From a phage, in sequence record PZ544694.1: a DNA stretch of 56,700 nt, one strand, 5' to 3'. Positions within the stretch are counted from its first letter, which is position 1. Every line of letters begins with the position of its first letter. The translations under genes and the position numbers were made by a program. Positions 31,423 through 42,426 of the stretch are shown piece by piece. Under the pieces are notes generated by a model that had not been told where the DNA came from, ran no database searches, and was given only the letters and a program-made list of their open reading frames with translations.

Positions 31423-33408
31423 ATGGCAGTCAACGCAAGGAACACTTCGCGGGCTGTCGTTTATCAGATCTTGCCTGACTTTAGGGCAAGGTCTACCCAC
31501 CGGAATGTTCTATATCAGGTCTCCGCGAAACTGCGTTTTCGGTCGCAGCACCGAAACGTGGTCTACCAAATACCGCCATTTCGTGCTAGGTCGGTCGTTT
31601 CTAATATAGTATATAGTACCGATTCAACTGCAAGAACGGTAATTACTGTCCCACAAGCGCTAAACCAAGTTGTCTATAACACGTCGTACCAGTTTGAGAT
31701 TTCAAACAATATCATTGGTGGGGTAATAAATACCGCGACCTATTCATGGGTTGAAGCGTTGCCGATCTCTAAACTTGATGTGAAGTCTTTTACGCAACTG
31801 GTGGTCGTTGGTACGGAATACGACACTACGTCCATGAAGTTTATCGGGCAAAACGTCCACCTCGTAAACCAAGGGCTACCGCAACCCCGCCCGGTCGATA
31901 CATGGTCGAACACGGAGATGGGTTCCGAGGTTATGCTCGTTTGTCAGTCTTTGGATATCGAATATATCCCGAGATCCGGGGTTGACTCTCCTAGCGTTGT
32001 ATCGTTGGTTTCCTACTCATCTCCGATAAAATGGGAGACAAGACCGGCTGACGTCGGTACGGTAACACATTTAGCATCGGTTCCGACGGATTTGTTCGGC
32101 CTCCCTAACTCTTTCACATCTTCCGGGAGTGTCGTTCAATTGTCGTCGTACCCGTCCACACCTCCGGCACGAGTAGGGGTTGAAAACGTCCCTCAGATTG
32201 TCAGTTTAGCCTCGATACCGGTAGGCGATGATCCGACCGTCGGAGTGGAGAAATCGTCTCAGGTTTTCACTCAAGCGATTCTGTCATCGGATTATGTATA
32301 TCCGCAATCCGATACTGATGTCGGCCAAGTTTTATTGTCACAAGTTGAGTCGGTCATTGATGAACTACCGATTTCCCCGGAGGACGTTAGTTCCGTTGTG
32401 TCCTTATCGGCGATTGGGGTCGACGCAACATGGAGTTGGTCAGATATATCTTCACCGTCAGTTAATATTTTGGCCGTACAAGATAGCCCGCAACCTCCGC
32501 TAGAGTCGTACTTCGTTTTAAATGCGGTAGGGTCTGCTACGGTGGCGATGTTATTAGAATCGGACTTCGGGCCGGCACACAAAGACAGTTACACCGAAAC
32601 GTATTCCGTACCGATCCTATCGTTGATGACTGCGCCTAAACGGTTTTACCCGCCTCTTGATAACGTGGTAGAACTTGAGAAAGGAAACCATGTTACTCAA
32701 TACGTTACGTCTACTGCGATGAAACGTGACGACGGTATGCCGATATCTACGGAAGATGTCGCCTCACTATCCATTGTTTCCGGGATAAAATCTCCGATGC
32801 CAACTCCGGACGAAGTTGCGAGGAAAGGCGACTTTATTTCGGGCCTATCGCAACACACCATGGTTACGAGTTCGTTCCCGTCTACGGAAGAACCTCAGAG
32901 TTATGTTGAAACGGGTAGTTTAGCTAAAAATATCGCGGTAACGGCATCGTACCCTGATATTCGTCTACCGATGACAGTTGGCCAAACGGACTTAGTAGCA
33001 TTTAATATCGCTAACTCGGTTGACTACCCGCCGGTGAAATCGTTTTTAATGTATGATTTCGCGGGATTAGTAACACAAAATATCGCGTGTAAGGCTAACT
33101 ATTTGCCCGCAAATACGCTAAACTCCTTATCGTTGACGACACAAACTTCGGCTAACGTTGCGTTCTCGGCCAGATACCCTGATAAAAGTACGGTTTATTC
33201 GCGAATTAATTCCGCTCAGGTTTCATCTTCGCTGGCAACGGTAGCTGAGTACCCGGATAAAGACTCAGTTCTTTCAGACATAAAGTCTACGTCCGTGTAT
33301 CAAAATGTTGTGCGCGTCGATTCTTCGTTATATCACATGCCACACCCACCGCAGAGACATCGCGTTAGGATCGTGTGTAAGATGATATATGGATATAAGA
33401 ACCGATAA
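31423..33408 (+). CDS. putative tail fiber / structural protein with internal repeats
   Basis: 661 aa; N-terminal RNVLYQV / RNVVYQI / SNIVYS repeats; recurring (S/E/R/D)YP(D/S/Q) motifs; Ser/Val-rich. Confidence 0.45.
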   Translation: MAVNARNTSRAVVYQILPDFRARSTHRNVLYQVSAKLRFRSQHRNVVYQIPPFRARSVVSNIVYSTDSTARTVITVPQALNQVVYNTSYQFEISNNIIGGVINTATYSWVEALPISKLDVKSFTQLVVVGTEYDTTSMKFIGQNVHLVNQGLPQPRPVDTWSNTEMGSEVMLVCQSLDIEYIPRSGVDSPSVVSLVSYSSPIKWETRPADVGTVTHLASVPTDLFGLPNSFTSSGSVVQLSSYPSTPPARVGVENVPQIVSLASIPVGDDPTVGVEKSSQVFTQAILSSDYVYPQSDTDVGQVLLSQVESVIDELPISPEDVSSVVSLSAIGVDATWSWSDISSPSVNILAVQDSPQPPLESYFVLNAVGSATVAMLLESDFGPAHKDSYTETYSVPILSLMTAPKRFYPPLDNVVELEKGNHVTQYVTSTAMKRDDGMPISTEDVASLSIVSGIKSPMPTPDEVARKGDFISGLSQHTMVTSSFPSTEEPQSYVETGSLAKNIAVTASYPDIRLPMTVGQTDLVAFNIANSVDYPPVKSFLMYDFAGLVTQNIACKANYLPANTLNSLSLTTQTSANVAFSARYPDKSTVYSRINSAQVSSSLATVAEYPDKDSVLSDIKSTSVYQNVVRVDSSLYHMPHPPQRHRVRIVCKMIYGYKNR

Positions 33409-34986
33409 ATGTTGACGGGAGGTTATAGCGATGAAAGTTGGTTGCCTGACGATTCTTACGCTCCTAATGGCTCTCTAGACGTATCTAAGATCCCGCTATT
33501 CACGGTAGATAGTCGTGGCTTATTTAATGGCGGTAATACTGGGGCTATGTTGTATACTTTTAGAGCTTCCGGCCTCTATGCTCCCGTATCCGCACCGTGG
33601 TCGCCTAGCTACCCTTTCGGGTATCCGTTCAATAGTCCGAGTATTCGACCGGAGTTATCCCCGAGCGGTTTTTCTATTGTACCTTGCCCGACTAGACCCG
33701 GAAGAAAGCGCTTCATGTTCCCCGGAAAAAAGATGGTCGGTAGACCCCTTACTTCTACAAGTAGCAGTGATAACTGGTCGGGGTCTCCTAACTGCTTCTC
33801 AATTCGCTATCGCATTCCTAGACCGTCGGTATCGGCTCCGGCAGGGCGTCAAACTAGCATATCTTTTGTAGCTAGATTTAATAGACGTACGGATAAGACC
33901 ACTAGACTAGCTTGGTATTTTTCTGTCGGATACCCGTCGATTAAGGTTCGACCGGGATACCAAACTAACTGGAGGAATTATGGGCTATCCAGTTTATGTC
34001 CGGGGTTCTTCGCTAGTTATATAATTTTTGGGAGTTCTAAACGTATAAATCTAGGGTCAGGAACACCGGGAGATACGGAGACTTGCACTTATTCAGATGG
34101 TCTTCCGTGGGTGTGCTTAAGACCTAACAACGAATTAGCTACGGATATACCCAACCCGACGGTACCGGGGAGAGACGGTCATTTTTTCAAATTTGAGTTC
34201 GACCGAGATTACCATATAGAAATTTTGTTGAGGATAAACTCCGCTACAAACAATTATGTAACTCGACCCTCCGTGAAAGTATTCATCGATGGGGAACCCG
34301 TCAGCAGTTGGAACGTTTCTGGAGCCAATGACGAGTTCTGGATTCCGCCCGAGGATACGTCAAATTTAGCTACTTCGGATCGGGTAAACTCAGAGAACTT
34401 TCTTACAGGGTTGCAGTTTAATTTTCAGATGAATCATAAGTACAACGTGTCAGTTTACCCGACGTATCACTATCCGGAGATGGCGGAGGAGTCCGGCCCG
34501 GTATTGATTAGTGATATCGTGGTAGGGGAGTCCAGTGCTTCCGACGGAGAAGTTGTCTTCGGGCCGTCAACTCGCGTATGGGGAGACGCTCCTAACTCGG
34601 ATATCGAGACATCATTCAAACGGCCACAAAGTTTCGATTCTAATGCTAGCGTGGTTGGTGCCCCCATGGGGTCGAATGTTGTTGATGAGGGGGCCGAGTT
34701 ATCCGGTGGGGCTGGAGACCGAGACATGTATAAAACCGATGGTAGTTCTATGCCGGATTTCGCCGGGAATATCTTAGGAGTTCAAGTAAAATCGATAGTT
34801 CGTGCCCCGTCCGCTGACGGCGAGGTCGTATCGCTACTAGGAGAAAGAGAATTGGGGTCTACCGAACTAAAGGCTTCGAATGGCGGGCGCTATTCGTCCG
34901 TAGCTCACACGATTACTTATACAACCCCCACCTCTCCTGAAGAAATATCCAATACTGCTTACGGTATATCAGTGAAAGAGGTATAA
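33409..34986 (+). CDS. putative tail fiber / receptor-binding-like protein
   Basis: 525 aa; central DRDYHIEILLRINSATNNYVTRPSVKVFIDGEPV resembles the WYYFEI...V(W/F)INN motif of the three downstream paralogs. Confidence 0.4.
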   Translation: MLTGGYSDESWLPDDSYAPNGSLDVSKIPLFTVDSRGLFNGGNTGAMLYTFRASGLYAPVSAPWSPSYPFGYPFNSPSIRPELSPSGFSIVPCPTRPGRKRFMFPGKKMVGRPLTSTSSSDNWSGSPNCFSIRYRIPRPSVSAPAGRQTSISFVARFNRRTDKTTRLAWYFSVGYPSIKVRPGYQTNWRNYGLSSLCPGFFASYIIFGSSKRINLGSGTPGDTETCTYSDGLPWVCLRPNNELATDIPNPTVPGRDGHFFKFEFDRDYHIEILLRINSATNNYVTRPSVKVFIDGEPVSSWNVSGANDEFWIPPEDTSNLATSDRVNSENFLTGLQFNFQMNHKYNVSVYPTYHYPEMAEESGPVLISDIVVGESSASDGEVVFGPSTRVWGDAPNSDIETSFKRPQSFDSNASVVGAPMGSNVVDEGAELSGGAGDRDMYKTDGSSMPDFAGNILGVQVKSIVRAPSADGEVVSLLGERELGSTELKASNGGRYSSVAHTITYTTPTSPEEISNTAYGISVKEV

Positions 34987-36003
34987 ATGTTAAAACATCA
35001 AGACGGTTTCGACCACTACGCAGATATCGGCAAGAAAGGTTCCGTAGTCGAGCCGTACTTAAAAGCAGCCGGGTATGATATCCGAAATGCTACTGACGAT
35101 ACGTTCCAGATTGACCTAGGTCGTCGTGACGGCGCTAAGAGCCTTAAATTTACCGTAGAACGTAACTCCGCAACCAATGCGTCGCTATCATGGGGGTTCA
35201 CTCCGGCCGGAAACTACGCGTGTTTCGGTTTCGCGATGAAAGCCAATGGTTCTCGTATGCGAGTATGTCGGGTTGAGAACTTGGTCGACGTGGAGTGGGA
35301 TAGCGAAGACGGTAAGCTAGAAATTGATGGCCAAAAAGGGGTAAACCCGCTGATCCTTAATGCGTGGTATTTTTTCGAGATAGAACTTGATAAGTCCGCT
35401 AAGAAAGTAACCGTATGGGTTAATAACGAAAAGCAAATCGAGGCGACCCTTACTACTTCTTGGCCTGAAAAACTCGTTCTGGTATGGGGGCAAGTGGGTA
35501 CAGCGCCCAATGCGGGTATCCAGTACCTAGATGATTTTTACGCTATGGACGATTCGGGGTCGGTAAACACTTCCCGCCTAGGGCCGATTGAGGTTGCTAC
35601 CCGCGCTCCTACTTCTGATGTTACGACCGAATGGGAGATCGTTAACGGCACTAACGAAAATCACTACCAAGTTGCCTCCCAACTGGAGCCGGGGAGACCT
35701 AACGCACCGTATTTACAGTCTAACAAGTCGGGAGCTAAAGACATTTTCCGTTCTAATACGATCCTACCGACTAACAACAAGGTTTTCGGCGTGTCGGTGA
35801 TTGCGTATGCCCGTAAAGGGGACTTAGACGACCGCAAACTCGGTATGGTGATCCAGACTGACGGGGGTTCTGAGAAAGAAGTCCAAGTACCGTTGACCGA
35901 AGACTATAAATACTACCAAGTTACCCACGAACAAACTCCGGGTAATACCGACTGGAATAAAGGCGCTGTCGAAGCATTGCAGTTCGGCATCGTGACTCGA
36001 TAG
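34987..36003 (+). CDS. putative receptor-binding / tail fiber protein, paralog 1
   Basis: 338 aa; shares WYFFEIELDK, LGPIEVATRAPTSDVTTEW, YLQSNKSGAKDIF with ORFs 36004 and 36988. Confidence 0.5.
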   Translation: MLKHQDGFDHYADIGKKGSVVEPYLKAAGYDIRNATDDTFQIDLGRRDGAKSLKFTVERNSATNASLSWGFTPAGNYACFGFAMKANGSRMRVCRVENLVDVEWDSEDGKLEIDGQKGVNPLILNAWYFFEIELDKSAKKVTVWVNNEKQIEATLTTSWPEKLVLVWGQVGTAPNAGIQYLDDFYAMDDSGSVNTSRLGPIEVATRAPTSDVTTEWEIVNGTNENHYQVASQLEPGRPNAPYLQSNKSGAKDIFRSNTILPTNNKVFGVSVIAYARKGDLDDRKLGMVIQTDGGSEKEVQVPLTEDYKYYQVTHEQTPGNTDWNKGAVEALQFGIVTR

Positions 36004-36987
36004 ATGATGCAATTTATGGACGGTTTCGACCAGCTAAAAGATATGCCGTCGGATAAGATGGTAAATTTACTCAACAACTCGGGGTACAACGCAGTACCGC
36101 CGATCCGTATTGCGGAGGGACGTAATACAGAAACCCGATGCTTATACCTAGGTGATGTAAACGAGAACGCAGCAAGCCCGGCAACACTGTCTCGACTTTT
36201 TAACTCCGAGACTAACCGTGTGGTTATCGGTTTTGCGTATTGTGCGGACAAAGTGCGGGACGATATTATCCGTATTCCCGGTTTTGGGGTGCTCGCTTGG
36301 AACCGCGACAATGGTAAAGTCTCCTTGGCCGGTGTTACGGGTCAAGCTATCTTGCTCCTAGGTATCTGGTACTATTTCGAGATCGTCATCAACAAAGAAA
36401 CAAATACTTTCCAAGTTTTTATTAATAACGGTGCGGACTTAGCTGGACAACTACCGGATAGTGTTCGTTTCATGACAGACTACAAATGCGAATGGCCGGG
36501 CGGTTCTGGCGGTAAAAAATTAGATGATATCGTTTTTATCGATGCGCAAGCCGGCAAATACGTTGACCGAGTTGGCCCGATTGAAATACTCACCCGAATG
36601 CCGACGGTGGACGTGGTGAGCGAATGGTCGCCATCGAAAGGCGATAACCACTGGTCTCTTGTCAGTAATCGCCCTCCGAAAGAGGACGAATATATTCAGT
36701 CTAACGTCTCCGGCGCGATGGATACTTTCAAAAGTGAAATCCCGCTCGACGCTAAAGGCGACATCTTGGCCGTGAGTGTCACCGCGATCAACCGTAAATC
36801 TGACGTAGATAATAGACAACTCGGGTTGGTGGTTGGCGAGAAAGACAAACAGTTGGAAAAGGTAGATGAAAAACTTACCTTGACTGACAAAATAAGTTAT
36901 GCTGTATTCGAAAATTCTCCGCTCGGCGCTAATTGGGATCGCGATAATATCCCTGAAACTCCGTTCGGTGTAGTTATTAGACCATAA
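36004..36987 (+). CDS. putative receptor-binding / tail fiber protein, paralog 2
   Basis: 327 aa; WYYFEIVINK, VGPIEILTRMPTVDVVSEW, YIQSNVSGAMDTF. Confidence 0.5.
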   Translation: MMQFMDGFDQLKDMPSDKMVNLLNNSGYNAVPPIRIAEGRNTETRCLYLGDVNENAASPATLSRLFNSETNRVVIGFAYCADKVRDDIIRIPGFGVLAWNRDNGKVSLAGVTGQAILLLGIWYYFEIVINKETNTFQVFINNGADLAGQLPDSVRFMTDYKCEWPGGSGGKKLDDIVFIDAQAGKYVDRVGPIEILTRMPTVDVVSEWSPSKGDNHWSLVSNRPPKEDEYIQSNVSGAMDTFKSEIPLDAKGDILAVSVTAINRKSDVDNRQLGLVVGEKDKQLEKVDEKLTLTDKISYAVFENSPLGANWDRDNIPETPFGVVIRP

Positions 36988-37908
36988 ATGTTTTTCTTCG
37001 AGGGGTTCGAACAGTTCGCCTTCGATGGGGATTCCCCGGCTTTCATGCGTAGAGCCGGGTATACCGTTTCGGGGTCTTTCGGCTTCGGCGCAGGACGTAA
37101 GAACGGCGCAAGCGTCCTACTCGGCCGAGGTCGAATATCCCGAGATTTCCCATCTGATACCGGCAATTTTACCGTAGGTTTCGCGTTCAATATGACCACG
37201 AGAGGAAATCTCGTAGGCATCTCAGGCGGGGATAGTACGCTTAAAGTTGGTGTAGACCAGACCACAGGGTTATTACAGTCCGAGGGAGAGTCAGGTTACG
37301 TTATCCCATTGCGTAACAACTGGTACTATCTAGAAGTGGAAGTAAACAAAGACGCAAAGACGGCCGACGTCTATATCAATGGTAAAAAAGACATTACGGT
37401 TTCGATACCAGATGGCGTAGCGACGGCAGACACGCTCACAATAACATTGCGGGACTTCGACGAGTCGGATTTTGCGGACATTCGCTTCGATGACTTGTAT
37501 TATGCCGACACTACGAGAGTCGGGCCTATCACCGTCACTACTCGCGTTCCGACGAAAGACGTATCGAAAGATTGGGGTGTTTCCGGTGGGGAATCTCACC
37601 ATGAGGTCGTAGCTCCCGCACTACCGAACTTAGTTGACCGGTTCATCTATACGGGGACGAATGGTGCTACGGATTCTTTCACCTCGGAAACCGTGCTATC
37701 AGAGGAGACAGAAGTAAAAGGTGTTTCGGTGATAACACTCCTCCGAAAAGCCACCGTAGATCCAGTTAGCGTAGATGTGTTCACAAACGAGCTAGTTAAA
37801 AACGAAGCTACGTTACCTCGTGATTGGGAGTACCGCTACTCAGAACTTGGAGTGCTCCCGGAGCACGTAATACCGGACTCAACTTTCGGAATAACTCTAA
37901 AAGCGTAA
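36988..37908 (+). CDS. putative receptor-binding / tail fiber protein, paralog 3
   Basis: 306 aa; WYYLEVEVNK, VGPITVTTRVPTKDVSKDW, FIYTGTNGATDSF. Confidence 0.5.
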   Translation: MFFFEGFEQFAFDGDSPAFMRRAGYTVSGSFGFGAGRKNGASVLLGRGRISRDFPSDTGNFTVGFAFNMTTRGNLVGISGGDSTLKVGVDQTTGLLQSEGESGYVIPLRNNWYYLEVEVNKDAKTADVYINGKKDITVSIPDGVATADTLTITLRDFDESDFADIRFDDLYYADTTRVGPITVTTRVPTKDVSKDWGVSGGESHHEVVAPALPNLVDRFIYTGTNGATDSFTSETVLSEETEVKGVSVITLLRKATVDPVSVDVFTNELVKNEATLPRDWEYRYSELGVLPEHVIPDSTFGITLKA

Positions 37909-38646
37909 ATGAAAATTGCCCCTAACATGGGGCTTTCCTATGGTTGGGTGAGAGGCGAGGATTTTTGGGGTGGCCCAATGAACGAGACGCTAACCACCTT
38001 AGATACTGTTACGTTTCTACGCCTACAATCTATCACGTTTAGTGCGCCACCGGCTGACGCTAAAAACGGCGACACCTATTTTATCTATAAAAACCCGACT
38101 GGCCCTTGGGTTGGCCAAGAAAGAAAACTGGCCGTATTGATCGACGGCGTGTGGCAATTCATCGAACCCAAACGAGGTTGGCGAGCATTCTTAGACCCGA
38201 CCAGTGAGTTTATCTGGTGGGACGGGGAGACGTGGCGTATTGAGAATACCGGAGTTGACCCGATCAACCCTAACCCATCTCCCGATGTTGTACCTATGGC
38301 GTTTGATGTATCCGCGACTATTTCGGAGAAGATGTATCCATCGGAAGTGCTCGTACACTTGCCAATTATCGACAATATGTACCTACCGGCTAACATGGCA
38401 CAATCTCAATTCGACGCCCGTAGTGCTTTTCTCGATAAAGCTAAGTTCACTGTGCAGAGAAATAACCAAACTGTCGGCACATTCACTGTCGATCGGGGGC
38501 AATATAACGCCACTTTCGTGACGTCTGGTAGCGTTGCCGTGAGATTTTTCAAAGGTGACAGGCTGACAATCTTAGCTCCGGTTGATACAATCGACTCAGC
38601 CGTTAACTTCGGCTTTATTATTAGATTAATGATTCAGGGGGCTTAA
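37909..38646 (+). CDS. DUF2793-like tail fiber-associated protein
   Basis: 245 aa; GDTYFIYKNPTGPWVGQ...IDGVWQFIEPKRGWRAF...WWDGETW aromatic/Gly pattern. Confidence 0.4.
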   Translation: MKIAPNMGLSYGWVRGEDFWGGPMNETLTTLDTVTFLRLQSITFSAPPADAKNGDTYFIYKNPTGPWVGQERKLAVLIDGVWQFIEPKRGWRAFLDPTSEFIWWDGETWRIENTGVDPINPNPSPDVVPMAFDVSATISEKMYPSEVLVHLPIIDNMYLPANMAQSQFDARSAFLDKAKFTVQRNNQTVGTFTVDRGQYNATFVTSGSVAVRFFKGDRLTILAPVDTIDSAVNFGFIIRLMIQGA

Positions 38647-41600
38647 ATGGGGCTACACATGGGGATCGGCCGTGGCCCTATTGATGAATTGATGGAAATC
38701 GAGGTCGGCGGAAGAACCGCTTGGCGTGGTTCCGTTAAAGAGTCCTCGTTCTTTCGGATACGGGCTGAAAATCTTTTCGGGGGTAAGAAAGCGGAGGGAG
38801 GCATTGAGGGTGGTTTCGAACTCTACATGGGCGATAAGGATCAGGTCGTTAGCGACAAACTTAAATCCATGTTGGGCGGTGGGAGCCAACCGGAGTTTCG
38901 CGGAGTAGCTACCGGCTATTTCGATGGTTTAGTGTCGGCCATGAACCCATACCCGAAAGCGTGGCGATTTAAAATACGTCGCATCTTAAAAGGTTGGGAC
39001 GGTGGGGTGTGGTATCCGGAAAAAGCGGTCATAGAACTTACCGGCCACGATGACGAGGGGAAAGAGTATCCCATCAAGGCGATGAACCCGGCTCACGTTA
39101 TTTACGAGTGTATGACAAACCGAGATTGGGGCCGAGGTATCTCTCGTGACCTACTGTTTGACTCGGAGTTCCGAAAGGTGGCCGATACGTTGTTCGAGGA
39201 GGGGTTCGGGATCTGTATTGCGTGGAGACGCCAAGACACCCTAGAGTCTTTTATCCAGAATATACTTAACCACATTTCAGGCGTGTTATACGTCGATAAG
39301 TTTACCGGTACTTTCAAACTCAAGTTACTTCGTAATGACTACGATGCGGATAACTTGCCGGTGTACGGTTTTGAGAGCGGGTTACTACAAATCGAGGAAG
39401 CGACTAACGGCGCAATCCATGGTCTGATGAATGAGTGTGTCGTTAAATGGTTCAACCCGATCGTCGGTAAAGAGAGTCAAGTTCGAGCACAGAACCTAGC
39501 CCTGATTCAGACTTCCGGCGCCATCAAAAGCGACACATTCACGTATGAGGGGGTGCCAACCGCAAAACTGGCCACTATCATAGCAGAAAGAGACTTACGT
39601 GTTGCGTCTACTAACGTCCGCCGGTTCACCCTAGTTTGTGACCGTCGAGCATGGCGAGTACAACCGGGAGACGTTTTGAAGATTTCCGACCCAAAGACAC
39701 GCGGACTTGAGAGCGTAATCGTTCGTGTAGCGGACACAGAGGAGAGTAAACAATCCGATGGTCAGATACGATTATCTTGCGTACAAGACACGTTCTCGTT
39801 CGACCTGAACACGTTTACTGGTGTTCAAGACCCGTCTTTCCCTAAACCGAACCTAAACCCGGTTCCGGCCAGACGTTTAGTTTATGAGGCGACATACGCA
39901 GAATTGTCGTCCCTATTCCCACTAGGAGAGTTTGAGGCCATCAAGCCGTCTTTCGGGTATTTGCGGGCACAGGCGGAAAAAGGCTCACCGGTAACGATGG
40001 CGTTCGAGATGCACGTCCAAAACCCGACCACTGGAAAGTATGAGAAAACAGGTGCGGGGGATTTCACTGCGCTATTCGAATTACCGGTTGACCTTGGATA
40101 TTTAGACCGCTATATCCGAATGAAAGATCCGGTAGATGAAGACTTGATTGAAGTCGGGGACGTTTTTTACGTCAACCAAGAAATAATCATGATCCAGTCT
40201 ATCGAGGAAGACGGGTTAGTCGAAATACGTCGAGGCGTGTACGACACCGTACCTCACCAACACCCCGCTGGCTCCGTAGTGTGGGATATGGTTCAAGGTG
40301 GCGGGCTTGACCTGACAACCCGACAAGCGGGAGAAACCTTATCGGTGAAGATACTCCCATGGACGCTATCGGGTGGGGTTCTCGACGAGTCTAACGTGTC
40401 CGAAGATGAACTGACTTTCAATTACCGATTCTACCGCCCATACGCTCCGGGTAAAGTAGAACTCACCTCAGTGGAAAGCACGGAACCGAACCCTTGGTTT
40501 AATGGCCATGTTTTACGAGCGGACGTCGGAGAGGCCGAAGTGCCTGACGCCTTGACGATAACGTGGGCGCACCGAGATAGACCGATGCAACAAGACAAGC
40601 CTATTTATCATGAGCAAGATAGTATCGGGCCGGAGCCGGGAACGACATACCGAATTAGTATCCTAAACGCTAAGGGTGAAGTAATCCGCAGAGAAAACGG
40701 GATTACCGGCACACAGTTTGTCTACACTTACGGCCAAGCGAGCCTAGATTTGAACGTGGAAGCGTCAGCCATAGATCCGGTTGCTGGGTACTTGAGATTA
40801 GAGTCTATGCGCGACGGGTTCGAATCGTGGCAAAACTACTTAATACCGATCACCGTTTTCAAGAAACCGCCTCAAATGGCGTATGTTAGTTTCTTAAACC
40901 AATCTGTCGCTCAGGTGTCCGATAAAATCGACCCCGAAGATAAAGACGGAGAGACGGCCGTAGACGCAAAAGCCATGGTTAGTTTTGTCAACCAATCCGT
41001 AGCACAGGAGAGCGAAGATCTATCTTCCGGTGGCGGGGGCCTACCTGATGGCGTGAATGTTAGCTATGTGCGACAACCGGTTTCGCAACAAGGCAAATTA
41101 GTTCCTATCGTAGATAGCCAACTGTTTGAGTTCCCTTACTTAATGTTGCTACGCCATGGGTTCGAACCGTCCGCCTCACAATTCTTCGCTACGGTAGCTA
41201 GACCGTCAGACCGTGTAACCGACGGGTACGATTTGTTCGAGAAAGAGAAGAACGATACAGAGTACGTGAACCAAGGGGCGCAACCGTGGACGCCGTGGGG
41301 GATTCTGTCTAAGGCAATCTCATATCTGGATAATGAGATAATCCTCGATGCTACGTCGGATTCTGACGGGGTTCCTACTGAGGACGCGATGCCGGGCGAC
41401 GTGATTTTCGTCGGAGCCGAAGCGATGGTGATCCGGGGCATCGATGGTAAACGTATTACGGTTGGCCGTGGTTGTGTTGATACAATCCCCGCACTTCATG
41501 GGAAAGGTCAAGTTGTGTGGTTTGTCGACAAACAAATAGCTTCCGGGCAACGTAAATATCACGACGGCCAGACTTGCGTAGTTGCCGTAAGGCCTCATTC

Positions 41601-42426
41601 TCTCGCAGCAGAAATCCAGCCTAAAGACGTGGTAAACAAACAACTGGAAGTGAAACTACGCGCGGATAGACCATATCCACCGGGGTTCTTGCTCGGCAAC
41701 GGTGAGCACTTTTTCAAAGGGTGGGACGCACTGGCCGATAACTTTGACTACTATGACCCGCAAGGCAAAGACTTAGTGATGACGTGGGCGCACCGTAACC
41801 GAGTTCGTCAAGGGGAAACCGTGTTAGACCATCTTGATGTGGGACAACAACGGCCAAGCGACGTAATGTATCGAGTGTGGATCGGGAAACGATATACTCC
41901 TAGATACAGCAATCGCACAGTTACTATCACCATGGGGACGTATTATACTCGCGACGCAGGAATGACGATCAAGGCCGAAGACTTACACGCGTTCGGCAGA
42001 CGAGTAGGGATCTTGACGGAATCCACCGGCTACGTCTATGTTTCGATCACGGTATCCGCTGTCGATGAAAACGAGCTTAGTAGCTGGCAAGGATATAATA
42101 CTCAGTGTAAAGTACCCTCAATTCCGGCCAAGCGAGATGTTGACCCCAATCCGGGAAGACCTGACCCGGGAACTGGCGGTGGCGAAACTGGCGGTGGCGG
42201 AACTGGCGGTGGTACGAACCCCGGCAATCCAGATCCGGGTCAGCCTGATAGACCGAACCCCGACCCCGACCCGGGCAACCCTGATCCAGAACCTAATCCG
42301 GGCAACCCTGACCCTGATCCGGTCGAGCCTCCGCCACCGTTGGTTGTTGCCGGTTGGTCAAACAAGTGGGATCATGATTGGGCGGAACGACTACCAGACC
42401 AAGACGTCAAAGAGGATACTGAATAA
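38647..42426 (+). CDS. host specificity / central tail fiber protein (lambda gpJ-like) with Gly/Pro-rich C-terminal tract
   Basis: 1259 aa; region GISRDLLFDSEF...GFGICIAWRRQDTLESFIQNI colinear with lambda J (GMGKRLGAADVDKW...); C-terminal PNPGRPDPGTGGGETGGGG... at about 42145-42345. Confidence 0.6.
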   Translation: MGLHMGIGRGPIDELMEIEVGGRTAWRGSVKESSFFRIRAENLFGGKKAEGGIEGGFELYMGDKDQVVSDKLKSMLGGGSQPEFRGVATGYFDGLVSAMNPYPKAWRFKIRRILKGWDGGVWYPEKAVIELTGHDDEGKEYPIKAMNPAHVIYECMTNRDWGRGISRDLLFDSEFRKVADTLFEEGFGICIAWRRQDTLESFIQNILNHISGVLYVDKFTGTFKLKLLRNDYDADNLPVYGFESGLLQIEEATNGAIHGLMNECVVKWFNPIVGKESQVRAQNLALIQTSGAIKSDTFTYEGVPTAKLATIIAERDLRVASTNVRRFTLVCDRRAWRVQPGDVLKISDPKTRGLESVIVRVADTEESKQSDGQIRLSCVQDTFSFDLNTFTGVQDPSFPKPNLNPVPARRLVYEATYAELSSLFPLGEFEAIKPSFGYLRAQAEKGSPVTMAFEMHVQNPTTGKYEKTGAGDFTALFELPVDLGYLDRYIRMKDPVDEDLIEVGDVFYVNQEIIMIQSIEEDGLVEIRRGVYDTVPHQHPAGSVVWDMVQGGGLDLTTRQAGETLSVKILPWTLSGGVLDESNVSEDELTFNYRFYRPYAPGKVELTSVESTEPNPWFNGHVLRADVGEAEVPDALTITWAHRDRPMQQDKPIYHEQDSIGPEPGTTYRISILNAKGEVIRRENGITGTQFVYTYGQASLDLNVEASAIDPVAGYLRLESMRDGFESWQNYLIPITVFKKPPQMAYVSFLNQSVAQVSDKIDPEDKDGETAVDAKAMVSFVNQSVAQESEDLSSGGGGLPDGVNVSYVRQPVSQQGKLVPIVDSQLFEFPYLMLLRHGFEPSASQFFATVARPSDRVTDGYDLFEKEKNDTEYVNQGAQPWTPWGILSKAISYLDNEIILDATSDSDGVPTEDAMPGDVIFVGAEAMVIRGIDGKRITVGRGCVDTIPALHGKGQVVWFVDKQIASGQRKYHDGQTCVVAVRPHSLAAEIQPKDVVNKQLEVKLRADRPYPPGFLLGNGEHFFKGWDALADNFDYYDPQGKDLVMTWAHRNRVRQGETVLDHLDVGQQRPSDVMYRVWIGKRYTPRYSNRTVTITMGTYYTRDAGMTIKAEDLHAFGRRVGILTESTGYVYVSITVSAVDENELSSWQGYNTQCKVPSIPAKRDVDPNPGRPDPGTGGGETGGGGTGGGTNPGNPDPGQPDRPNPDPDPGNPDPEPNPGNPDPDPVEPPPPLVVAGWSNKWDHDWAERLPDQDVKEDTE

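Follow-up and report, generated by a model that had tools for sequence, protein, structure and literature searches.

The window, a 56,700-nucleotide stretch of DNA, represents the Escherichia phage E21 (Casjensviridae, Lavrentievavirus) as an artificial concatenation in which 85 predicted coding sequences lie head to tail, every one on the + strand and with no intergenic bases. The genes of interest are gp47 (paralog A, 306 aa; 36988..37908), gp46 (paralog B, 327 aa; 36004..36987) and gp45 (paralog C, 338 aa; 34987..36003), referred to here as the trio, and gp44 (33409..34986); all four open reading frames were found exactly at these coordinates. On one side they adjoin gp43 (31423..33408), encoding a degenerate-repeat virion protein that matches phrog_7226 (E 2e-259). 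This protein is 661 aa long in the window and in Proteus phage PM87, compared with 616 aa in the E21 annotation, and is 95.5% identical to its PM87 counterpart. On the other side lie gp48 (37909..38646), encoding a DUF2793 protein (PF10983, E 3e-23; phrog_7049, tail fiber), and gp49 (38647..42426), encoding a J-like central tail protein of 1259 aa that matches Phage-tail_3. The latter is the ortholog of Chi gp30 and YSD1_29 and has a C-terminal extension of about 500 aa past the J core: PDB chain 8rk3_o matches residues 3-735 only, while 8vjh_A matches the protein from end to end.

The native E21 gene order is J-like, DUF2793, gp47, gp46, gp45, gp44, gp43, lysis. Thus gp48 is immediately upstream of the trio, of which gp47 is natively the first member, and gp43 is the last tail gene ahead of the lysis cassette. 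The first-pass annotation had placed the array among fibre-like, DUF2793 and J-like genes, and this holds for the native genome, the neighbours in the window being the true ones; native transcription order runs the opposite way. The exact abutment of the reading frames is an artefact of concatenation, the native spacers being 9-12 nt.

The sequences show gp45, gp46 and gp47 to be true paralogs, with a similarity far above chance. BLASTP aligns them pairwise across nearly their whole length at 27-31% identity, with E values of 4e-47 for gp45/gp46, 2e-32 for gp45/gp47 and 9e-29 for gp46/gp47. All three also span the full length of the phrog_2448 HMM (E 5.6e-120, 3.5e-111 and 3.2e-92 for gp45, gp46 and gp47, respectively), residues 1-338 of gp45 aligning to the 335-position profile. 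In PHROGs this group is annotated as 'hypothetical protein', with function unassigned. Pairwise alignment and the common profile match thus bear out the earlier proposal of three clear paralogs in tandem. The shared motifs listed with that proposal are present, with two amendments: WYYFEI and V(W/F)INN, given as five residues apart, are separated by about 10 in the trio, and gp47 carries FIYTGTNGATDSF where Y(L/I)QSN was expected.

The open reading frame at 33409-34986 had been described as a divergent copy. Since plain BLASTP of gp44 against gp45 is not significant (E 0.19), this homology has to be read from profile and fold evidence only. Profile-profile comparison with hhalign aligns gp44 residues 288-543 to paralog residues 127-337 (93% probability, E 3e-7), weak, collinear HMM matches occur in 7 of 7 gp44/gp35-type proteins examined, and Foldseek matches the gp45 model over its full length to the gp44 orthologs JS26 gp50, JS26 gp51 and Saba gp43. 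The description of gp44 is upheld by these results, which support its inclusion as a remote fourth member of the family. It matches phrog_10924 and not phrog_2448, and 13 homolog clusters were found for it, compared to 152 for gp45. The native protein has 546 aa; the window lacks its first 21 codons (GTG start, MAIPDILFTESFQQ...), which are kept in homologs and are similar to the family N-terminal motif.

No Pfam model exists for the family formed by the trio and gp44, and searches of Pfam, NCBIfam, PADLOC and the PDB with single sequences and profiles placed the trio in no named family above threshold. The sole sequence-level hints are to Laminin_G_3 (PF13385) and to the neurotoxin receptor-binding/NTNH lectin domain. 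The Laminin_G_3 match of gp47 scores 19 bits (E 0.0017), under the Pfam gathering threshold of 27.6 bits; the Pfam search gave no such match for gp45 or gp46, and just 3 of 49 family members gave any, the best with an E value of 9.8e-5. Structure prediction, by contrast with these scores, yields the jelly-roll or ConA/LamG-like fold that the first-pass annotation had anticipated. The trio proteins are predicted to be compact, two-domain and all-beta: a ConA-like lectin/glucanase sandwich at the N-terminus (in gp45 about aa 1-190, nt 34987-35556) is followed by a CBM-like jelly roll (in gp45 about aa 192-338, nt 35560-36000). The N-terminal domain of the model forms a curved beta-sandwich of two sheets that superposes on known structures of the ConA-like superfamily, a class embracing Laminin_G_3, sialidase lectin domains, Cip1, PL20/PL7 lyases and NTNH/neurotoxin Hc-N. 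For the modelled C-terminal domain the candidate relatives are CBM or galactose-binding-domain-like jelly rolls (CBM32, CBM6, CBM35, CBM22, discoidin, IFT25). Unlike the ConA-like PDB matches, none of which has this arrangement, the trio fuses a ConA-like domain to a second jelly roll. By our reading, the residues invariant among the paralogs would fall in LamG-type structural segments (WYYFEI...V.INN and LDD.Y), with no obvious catalytic set. Comparison with the ConA-like superfamily pointed to no established sugar-binding or catalytic residues. The AF2 monomer is globular, its two compact beta-sandwich domains starting from residue 2, and it shows neither a shaft nor an N-terminal anchor, and nothing that is obviously a trimerisation element; the combination of N-terminal anchor and elongated trimeric shaft or beta-helix that marks trimeric tail fibres and tailspikes is thus absent from the monomer model.

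Matches to the family at E <= 1e-3 number 7357 clusters (50% identity), 2364 of them at E <= 1e-10. Tandem multi-copy sets of the same fold are present also in unrelated phages such as Lu11, AchV4 and Roseovarius phage 1. Relatives of about 625 aa with two matched stretches were considered as B-C fusions; this was rejected, the two stretches being those of a B ortholog split by an insertion of about 290 aa. In this metagenomic ortholog of gp46 the insertion, which bears Asp-box-like repeats, lies at a loop near residue 57, and because a domain of that size is tolerated there, paralog B may occupy a peripheral position.

The order of the trio is identical in six Chi-like phages (Chi gp32-34, YSD1_31-33, JS26 gp54-52, XAP3 32-34, PM87 and Saba), a comparison in which the trio was nowhere seen to be exchanged, lost or altered in copy number. 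The Chi, YSD1 and JS26 proteins are positional orthologs with 33-59% identity, and their genes follow those for the J-like and DUF2793 proteins in identical order; they show no difference in kind from the E21 trio, which is a further member of the set. In each of 177 phage records the family occurs at three places, and a tree, run with light bootstrap, separates three positional clades, each at 100/100 bootstrap and each repeating one phage topology. On this evidence the triplication is ancient and fixed, older than the divergence of the five genera whose members were examined. Identity to Chi is 59% for gp45, 46% for gp46 (Chi gp33) and 33% for gp47 (Chi gp32), the yardsticks being 53% for the hub, 57% for the endolysin and 42% for J. 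Hence gp45 is at least as conserved as hub and endolysin, gp46 is near J, and gp47 alone is lower, as the fastest-evolving member of the trio.

Between E21 and PM87 the three trio proteins are 99.7% identical, while gp44 alone falls to 53% (45-68% at the nucleotide level), between flanks of 91-100% nucleotide identity. The pattern marks gp44 as a cleanly exchanged cassette between these close relatives, with native breakpoints some 50 nt into the gene from its 5' end and at the stop codon. The E21 type of gp44 is also present in P-07 and P2-71, phages isolated on Proteus, so that gp44 type has no established link to host. Comparison with related phages divides the first-pass suggestion of host-range diversification behind the array: the suggestion fits gp44, which varies, and fails for the trio, which is fixed, co-diverges with the phage and, in E21 and PM87, lacks the variation by host or strain to be expected of receptor-binding proteins among close relatives.

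Evidence of virion location comes from the Serratia phage JS26, in whose purified virions mass spectrometry recorded 2108, 1677 and 1654 PSMs for gp52, gp53 and gp54, with 86, 77 and 93% coverage, 1241 PSMs for gp49, the gp43 ortholog, and the presence of gp55, the ortholog of the DUF2793 protein gp48 (PMC8754663 Table S6). From the same table we computed about 5-6 PSM per residue for the trio as against about 2-3 for J-like, hub and Dit proteins, a semi-quantitative comparison. In AchV4 the structural proteins 0025 and 0026 come after the tail-fibre gene, and a family member of that phage is labelled 'virion structural protein'. The family is thus a virion component in orthologs only (JS26 gp52-54 and an AchV4 member), with 33-50% identity to the E21 proteins. 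Given this and the tail-fibre neighbourhood of the genes, a multivalent adsorption role for the array, as put forward in the first-pass annotation, is plausible.

A link to the long tail fibre is suggested by several observations. The J-like ortholog YSD1_29 was localised by immunogold label on the long fibre (PMC12264135). In the Klebsiella phage Soft, of the genus Yonseivirus, J is short (761 aa) and trio, gp44-type and gp43-type genes are absent; its relatives PIN1 and PIN2, of the same genus, show no long fibre by EM. From the co-occurrence of the trio with a long J extension, and its absence from the Yonseivirus genome examined, we infer that trio and long fibre are connected. The Chi-like fibre is 220 nm long (PMC4342425), which by our estimate exceeds what a J extension of about 500 residues alone could make. 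The accessible literature yielded no binding, localisation or mutant data on any family member; searches for YSD1_30-35 and Chi gp34-36 returned nothing relevant, and YSD1_30-35 go unmentioned in Hardy et al. 2020. The Chi tail-tip entry 8vjh contains the J-like and Dit orthologs, and sequence and profile searches found no PDB chain matching the trio, the DUF2793 protein, gp44 or gp43.

The reading towards which we lean, with moderate confidence, is that the distal tail or fibre has the trio as its fixed, lectin-like subunits and gp44 as an exchangeable specificity subunit. On this view gp47, gp46 and gp45 would be non-exchangeable parts of the distal tail apparatus, present in stoichiometric amounts, and would sit at or alongside the DUF2793 protein and the extended C-terminus of the J-like protein, which would place them in or on the long Chi-type fibre. 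Their lectin-type domains may bind, multivalently and with low specificity, to conserved glycans of the cell surface or to fibre partners of the phage itself; the fold alone is no proof of glycan binding, because folds of the ConA-like and CBM-like kinds are also used for protein-protein contacts and for catalysis. A place equivalent to that of the trio would be taken by gp44, as the exchangeable, strain-specific recognition subunit. More tentatively, it is possible rather than probable that the curly, flagellum-wrapping fibre of Chi-like phages, about 220 nm long, is heteromeric, with the trio and the gp44/gp35-type, DUF2793, gp43/gp36-type and J-like proteins as serial or lateral subunits, and consists mostly of globular paralogous beads and not of a trimeric shaft.

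It is improbable, in our judgement, that diversifying duplication has turned the array into receptor-binding proteins that replace or complement one another, directed at different receptors and serving a wider or shifted host range. The predicted lectin-type folds, the virion orthologs and the adjoining tail-fibre genes would suit such a set, as would the faster evolution of paralog A relative to B and C and the recurrence of tandem copies in Lu11, AchV4 and Roseovarius phage 1. Against it, however, stand the age of the triplication and the co-divergence of the copies with the phage, the absence of exchange, loss or copy-number change among the six phages compared, and the near identity of the trio in E21 and PM87 even though gp44 has been replaced. 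Because gp45 is highly conserved across Salmonella, Serratia, Proteus and Xanthomonas phages, its recognition of a variable receptor is disfavoured, and such conservation could indicate a role that is purely structural.

That last thought can be extended to the whole trio which, with gp44 and gp43, might form a heteromer that makes up or coats the long curly fibre, the beta-sandwiches serving protein-protein contacts only and receptor contact falling to the J C-terminus, gp44 or gp43. The fixed triplet order, strictly vertical inheritance and conservation of gp45 speak for this account, as do the similar abundance of the three proteins in JS26 virions, the association of the trio with the long J extension, the excess length of the fibre and the lack of these proteins in solved tail-tip structures. 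We nevertheless consider it rather unlikely, given that the predicted monomers are globular and not fibrous, that glycan binders predominate in the fold classes of both predicted domains, and that the Asp-box, propeller-like insertion of the B ortholog is typical of glycan-directed proteins. Virion-borne enzymes, that is beta-jelly-roll polysaccharide lyases or glycosidases degrading capsule, EPS or O-antigen during adsorption, seem a most improbable identity for the trio: its sequences match no lyase, hydrolase or GH family in Pfam, NCBIfam or the PDB, GH16-type hydrolases included, and the invariant residues described above look structural.

Chi is the classic flagellotropic phage, and the present genes matter to two questions about it: what its long fibre is made of, and which proteins manage the passage from flagellum to cell surface. 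The six adjacent genes are candidates for the unmodelled distal part of the Chi-type tail, and four of them belong to one large unnamed family of proteins that are present in virions (as orthologs) and missing from solved tail-tip structures. With the fixed trio divided from the single exchangeable cassette, gp44 offers itself as a rational target where the host range of Chi-like phages of Proteus, Salmonella and E. coli is to be engineered.

Accessory carbohydrate-binding baseplate proteins are exemplified by the BppA-type modules of lactococcal phages and by the baseplate upper protein gp23 of mycobacteriophage Douge (PDB 8zdo); they have no sequence relationship to the trio. These siphophage systems have a baseplate whereas the Chi-type tail has a single fibre, and to our knowledge a fixed triplet with a variable fourth copy is undescribed for them. 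The T4 long tail fibre, gp34-gp37, is a multi-protein, serially assembled structure (PMC5537660). Its proteins are trimeric fibrous shafts. As in T4, several adjacent Chi-type genes lying beyond those for the tail tip may jointly make one long fibre, and by our arithmetic the Chi-type distal proteins sum to about 2.9 k residues, similar to T4 gp34-37. The E21 proteins differ from the T4 shafts in being predicted as globular two-domain units, and their serial assembly is speculation.

Family members carry misleading database names, among them 'transient receptor potential channel', 'histone-lysine N-methyltransferase' and 'holin', which the present analysis corrects.

The three ORFs gp45 (34987-36003), gp46 (36004-36987) and gp47 (36988-37908), designated paralogs C, B and A respectively, were proposed to be paralogous in the first-pass annotation, and this is borne out by pairwise BLASTP comparisons (E-values of 4e-47, 2e-32 and 9e-29; 27-31% identity in almost full-length alignments). 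Their alignment contains 55 invariant columns, and each matches phrog_2448, a family of unknown function, from end to end. The conserved motifs described in that annotation are also real, with the correction that the spacing in the central motif is around 10 residues, not 5. The further suggestion that gp44 (33409-34986) is a divergent copy holds despite the lack of similarity to the trio detectable by BLASTP (E 0.19). A profile built from 13 homologs of gp44 aligns with the 49-sequence family profile at 93% probability (E 3e-7, 204 columns), pairing 'DYHIEILL...VKVFIDGE' with 'WYFFEIEL...VTVWVNNE' as well as the entire C-terminal domain. Additionally, the family HMM gives weak, collinear matches in each of the seven gp44/gp35-type proteins, which come from six phages, and comparison of the gp45 model with BFVD models gave matches spanning both domains to the gp44 orthologs JS26 gp50, JS26 gp51 and Saba gp43 (E 1e-14 to 4e-11, TMq 0.57-0.65). 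Taken together, the profile, HMM and fold evidence indicates a four-member array in which gp44 is the very remote member.

The AF2 model of gp45, calculated with high confidence from a 49-sequence alignment, comprises two all-β domains (pLDDT 95.3, pTM 0.92), confirming the fold predicted earlier, a concanavalin/LamG-like jelly-roll. At the sequence level, hints of this fold were confined to a sub-threshold Laminin_G_3 match and a weak NTNH match; searches of NCBIfam and PADLOC yielded no match, and among named sequence families membership was confirmed for none but phrog_2448. Paralog B orthologs of around 620-630 residues (L012 7946-9832, from metagenomic contig SRR29457789_3633, and proteins P0148 and P0155) bear an insertion of around 290 residues in a loop of the N-terminal domain, at about residue 57 of E21 gp46, which suggests that this domain is surface-exposed. 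The insertion contains 4-5 Asp-box-like S-x-D-x-x-x-W repeats (five in the metagenomic ortholog, at a spacing of around 40 residues), weakly matches the DUF6242 β-propeller and is reminiscent of glycan-directed propellers.

Across its 4.5 kb, the paralog region matches Escherichia phage E21 (NC_052983/MN604053; Casjensviridae, Lavrentievavirus) at 100% identity. The window consists of 85 back-to-back ORFs over 56,700 nt, all on the + strand and without a single intergenic base, and BLASTN comparison with E21 yields gene-sized blocks in record order, each flipped to its coding strand whatever the native strand. The window is thus a concatenated CDS set, not native DNA, so that the order of natively minus-strand genes, the spacing, and any promoters or terminators read from it are non-biological. 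In native E21, a single strand carries the tape measure, gp53 (Dit-like), gp52 (hub), two small proteins, gp49 (J-like; 38647-42426), gp48 (DUF2793; 37909-38646), gp47, gp46, gp45, gp44, gp43 and the lysis cassette, with spacers of 9-12 nt flanking the paralogs. The neighbours originally named are therefore correct, but they appear in inverted order, and the seamless joining of the ORFs is artefactual. Native gp44 starts with GTG, MAIPDILFTESFQQ..., and its first 21 codons are missing from ORF 33409-34986; this N-terminus is kept among homologs and resembles the F-x-[DE]-G-F-[DE]-Q N-terminal strand of the family. The neighbouring gp43 (31423-33408), a protein of degenerate, around 30-residue repeats (...YPD...) assigned solely to phrog_7226, has 661 residues in the window and in the PM87 annotation, compared with 616 in both E21 records. 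Since the additional 45 N-terminal residues, which begin 4 nt past the gp44 stop codon, are conserved in PM87 and Saba, the start annotated in E21 is probably too far downstream.

With gp45 as query, tblastn identified 177 phage records that contain relatives, usually at three sites per record. Counterparts of the trio are Chi gp32-34, YSD1 31-33 and JS26 gp54-52, with others in XAP3, PM87 and Saba. In all six phages inspected, the J-like and DUF2793 genes precede the trio, whose order is constant, and one or two gp44/gp35-type genes, a gp43/gp36-type gene and the lysis cassette follow. The best match of each paralog in other phages is its positional counterpart. In a neighbour-joining tree, clades A, B and C each receive 100/100 bootstrap support, and B+C 98/100, with identical phage topology within the three clades. 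The triplication consequently arose before at least five genera diverged, and the copies have passed down vertically from then on. Protein identities between E21 and Chi are 59% for paralog C, 57% for the endolysin, 53% for the hub, 51% for the DUF2793 protein, 46% for paralog B, 42% for the J-like protein, 33% for paralog A, 30% for gp44 (over 113 residues only) and 27% for gp43.

Orthologs of the trio occur in the virion. Malone et al. (PMC8754663) reported LC-MS/MS data for virions purified from JS26, a flagellotropic phage of the Casjensviridae; their gene coordinates agree with the RefSeq JS26 genes identified here as orthologs. From their Supplementary Table S6 we calculated PSMs per residue. 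Paralogs C, B and A (JS26 gp52, gp53 and gp54) gave 2108, 1677 and 1654 PSMs at 86%, 77% and 93% coverage, or around 6.2, 5.3 and 5.2 per residue. Corresponding figures were around 1200 PSMs each for the gp44-type gp50 and gp51 (74% and 66%; around 2.9 and 3.2), 1241 for the gp43-type gp49 (88%; around 1.8), 483 for the DUF2793 protein gp55 (81%; around 2.0) and 2748 for the J-like gp56 (82%; around 2.2); the hub and Dit proteins gave about 2.7 per residue. These counts mark the trio as real structural proteins with a copy number at least tail-tip-like.

The Chi tail-tip entry 8vjh includes orthologs of gp49 and gp53. For gp48, the trio, gp44 and gp43, the PDB has no matching chain, implying that these virion proteins sit in an unmodelled part of the particle. 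Chi has a single 220-nm curly fibre (PMC4342425), which is labelled by the gp49 ortholog YSD1_29 (PMC12264135); the extension of gp49 past the J core, around 500 residues, seems by estimate too short alone to span 220 nm. In Klebsiella phage Soft, a Yonseivirus of the same family, the J protein is 761 residues long, a tailspike is present, and trio, gp44-type and gp43-type genes are absent; its relatives PIN1 and PIN2 show no long fibre by EM. The presence of the J extension and the six downstream genes thus tracks that of the long fibre. At its C-terminus (around 42150-42400), gp49 bears a Pro/Gly/Asp/Asn-rich low-complexity tract of around 90 residues, …PGRPDPGTGGGETGGGGTGGGTNPGNPDPGQPDRPNPDPDPGNPDPEPNPGNPDPDPVEPPPP…, possibly a flexible linker that connects to fibre components downstream.

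The first-pass annotation viewed the array as putative receptor-binding proteins, of a kind that usually reflects host-range diversification or a multivalent adsorption apparatus. For the trio, host-range diversification is not supported by comparison of E21 with Proteus phage PM87, in which paralogs A, B and C are each 99.7% identical, alongside the hub (100%), J-like (99.7%), DUF2793 (98%) and gp43 (95.5%) proteins; gp44 alone has been replaced (53%). Nucleotide identities are 93-100% for the trio, 45-68% for gp44 and 90-100% for gp43. With a 5' breakpoint around 50 nt inside the gene and a 3' breakpoint at the stop codon, gp44 (native locus L001 14955-16595) is a cleanly exchanged cassette between the two phages, so that the host-range-cassette signature is gp44's, not the trio's. 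By megablast, around 26 related records cover the trio at around 98% identity, and E21-type gp44 is found in four, two of these being E21 itself; homolog clusters number 13 for gp44 versus 152 for gp45. In JS26 the gp44/gp35-type gene is present as a tandem pair, gp51 and gp50 (L005 10030-12433), compared with a single copy in E21, Chi and XAP3; copy number thus differs at the variable position while the conserved trio keeps to three. No link was found between gp44 type and host, the E21-type allele being carried by Proteus-isolated phages as well. A number of the group's host labels are implausible, tail-region sequences at 98-99% identity having been submitted as phages of Enterococcus, Staphylococcus, Salmonella and Pseudomonas, and the labels look unreliable through contamination or mislabelling. 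Lavrentievavirus is also mentioned in a 2026 paper whose subject is a 'phage E21' of Pseudomonas aeruginosa.

The trio proteins are non-exchangeable structural subunits, comparable to the lectin-fold distal-tail accessory proteins already known. They would be placed on or in the Chi-type fibre, where their two lectin-type domains may engage conserved glycans or partner proteins through multivalent contacts of low specificity; gp44 would then be an exchangeable specificity subunit on a common scaffold. A purely architectural role for the trio fits the present data as well as glycan binding does. Further, less likely alternatives are the array of diversified receptor-binding proteins and an enzymatic role.

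The genes were already databased as hypothetical proteins and their virion presence already lay in a supplement, so neither is in itself a discovery. Three features appear to be previously undescribed: the lectin-type architecture of two domains, the ancient triplet that stays fixed beside an exchangeable, remote fourth member, and how large this unnamed family is. An exhaustive profile search retrieved 7357 clusters (50% identity) at E ≤ 1e-3, of which 2364 reached E ≤ 1e-10, members being mostly 310-360 residues long; in a scan of ten distant members, no Pfam model covered any. Relatives, often in tandem, occur in unrelated phages, among them Lu11, QdP_Psa3, AchV4, VpV262 and Roseovarius phage 1, those of QdP_Psa3 lying between baseplate and tail-fibre genes. 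Achromobacter phage AchV4 has two MS-detected 'virion structural proteins' of around 36 kDa encoded directly after the tail-fibre gene, and the BFVD model of an AchV4 'virion structural protein' matches gp45 with a TMq of 0.82. Spurious GenBank names borne by family members include 'putative short transient receptor potential channel 6', 'histone-lysine N-methyltransferase' and 'carbohydrate-binding protein'; similarly, the gp44-type XAP3_0035 is misnamed 'holin' and JS26 gp49 'putative capsid protein'.
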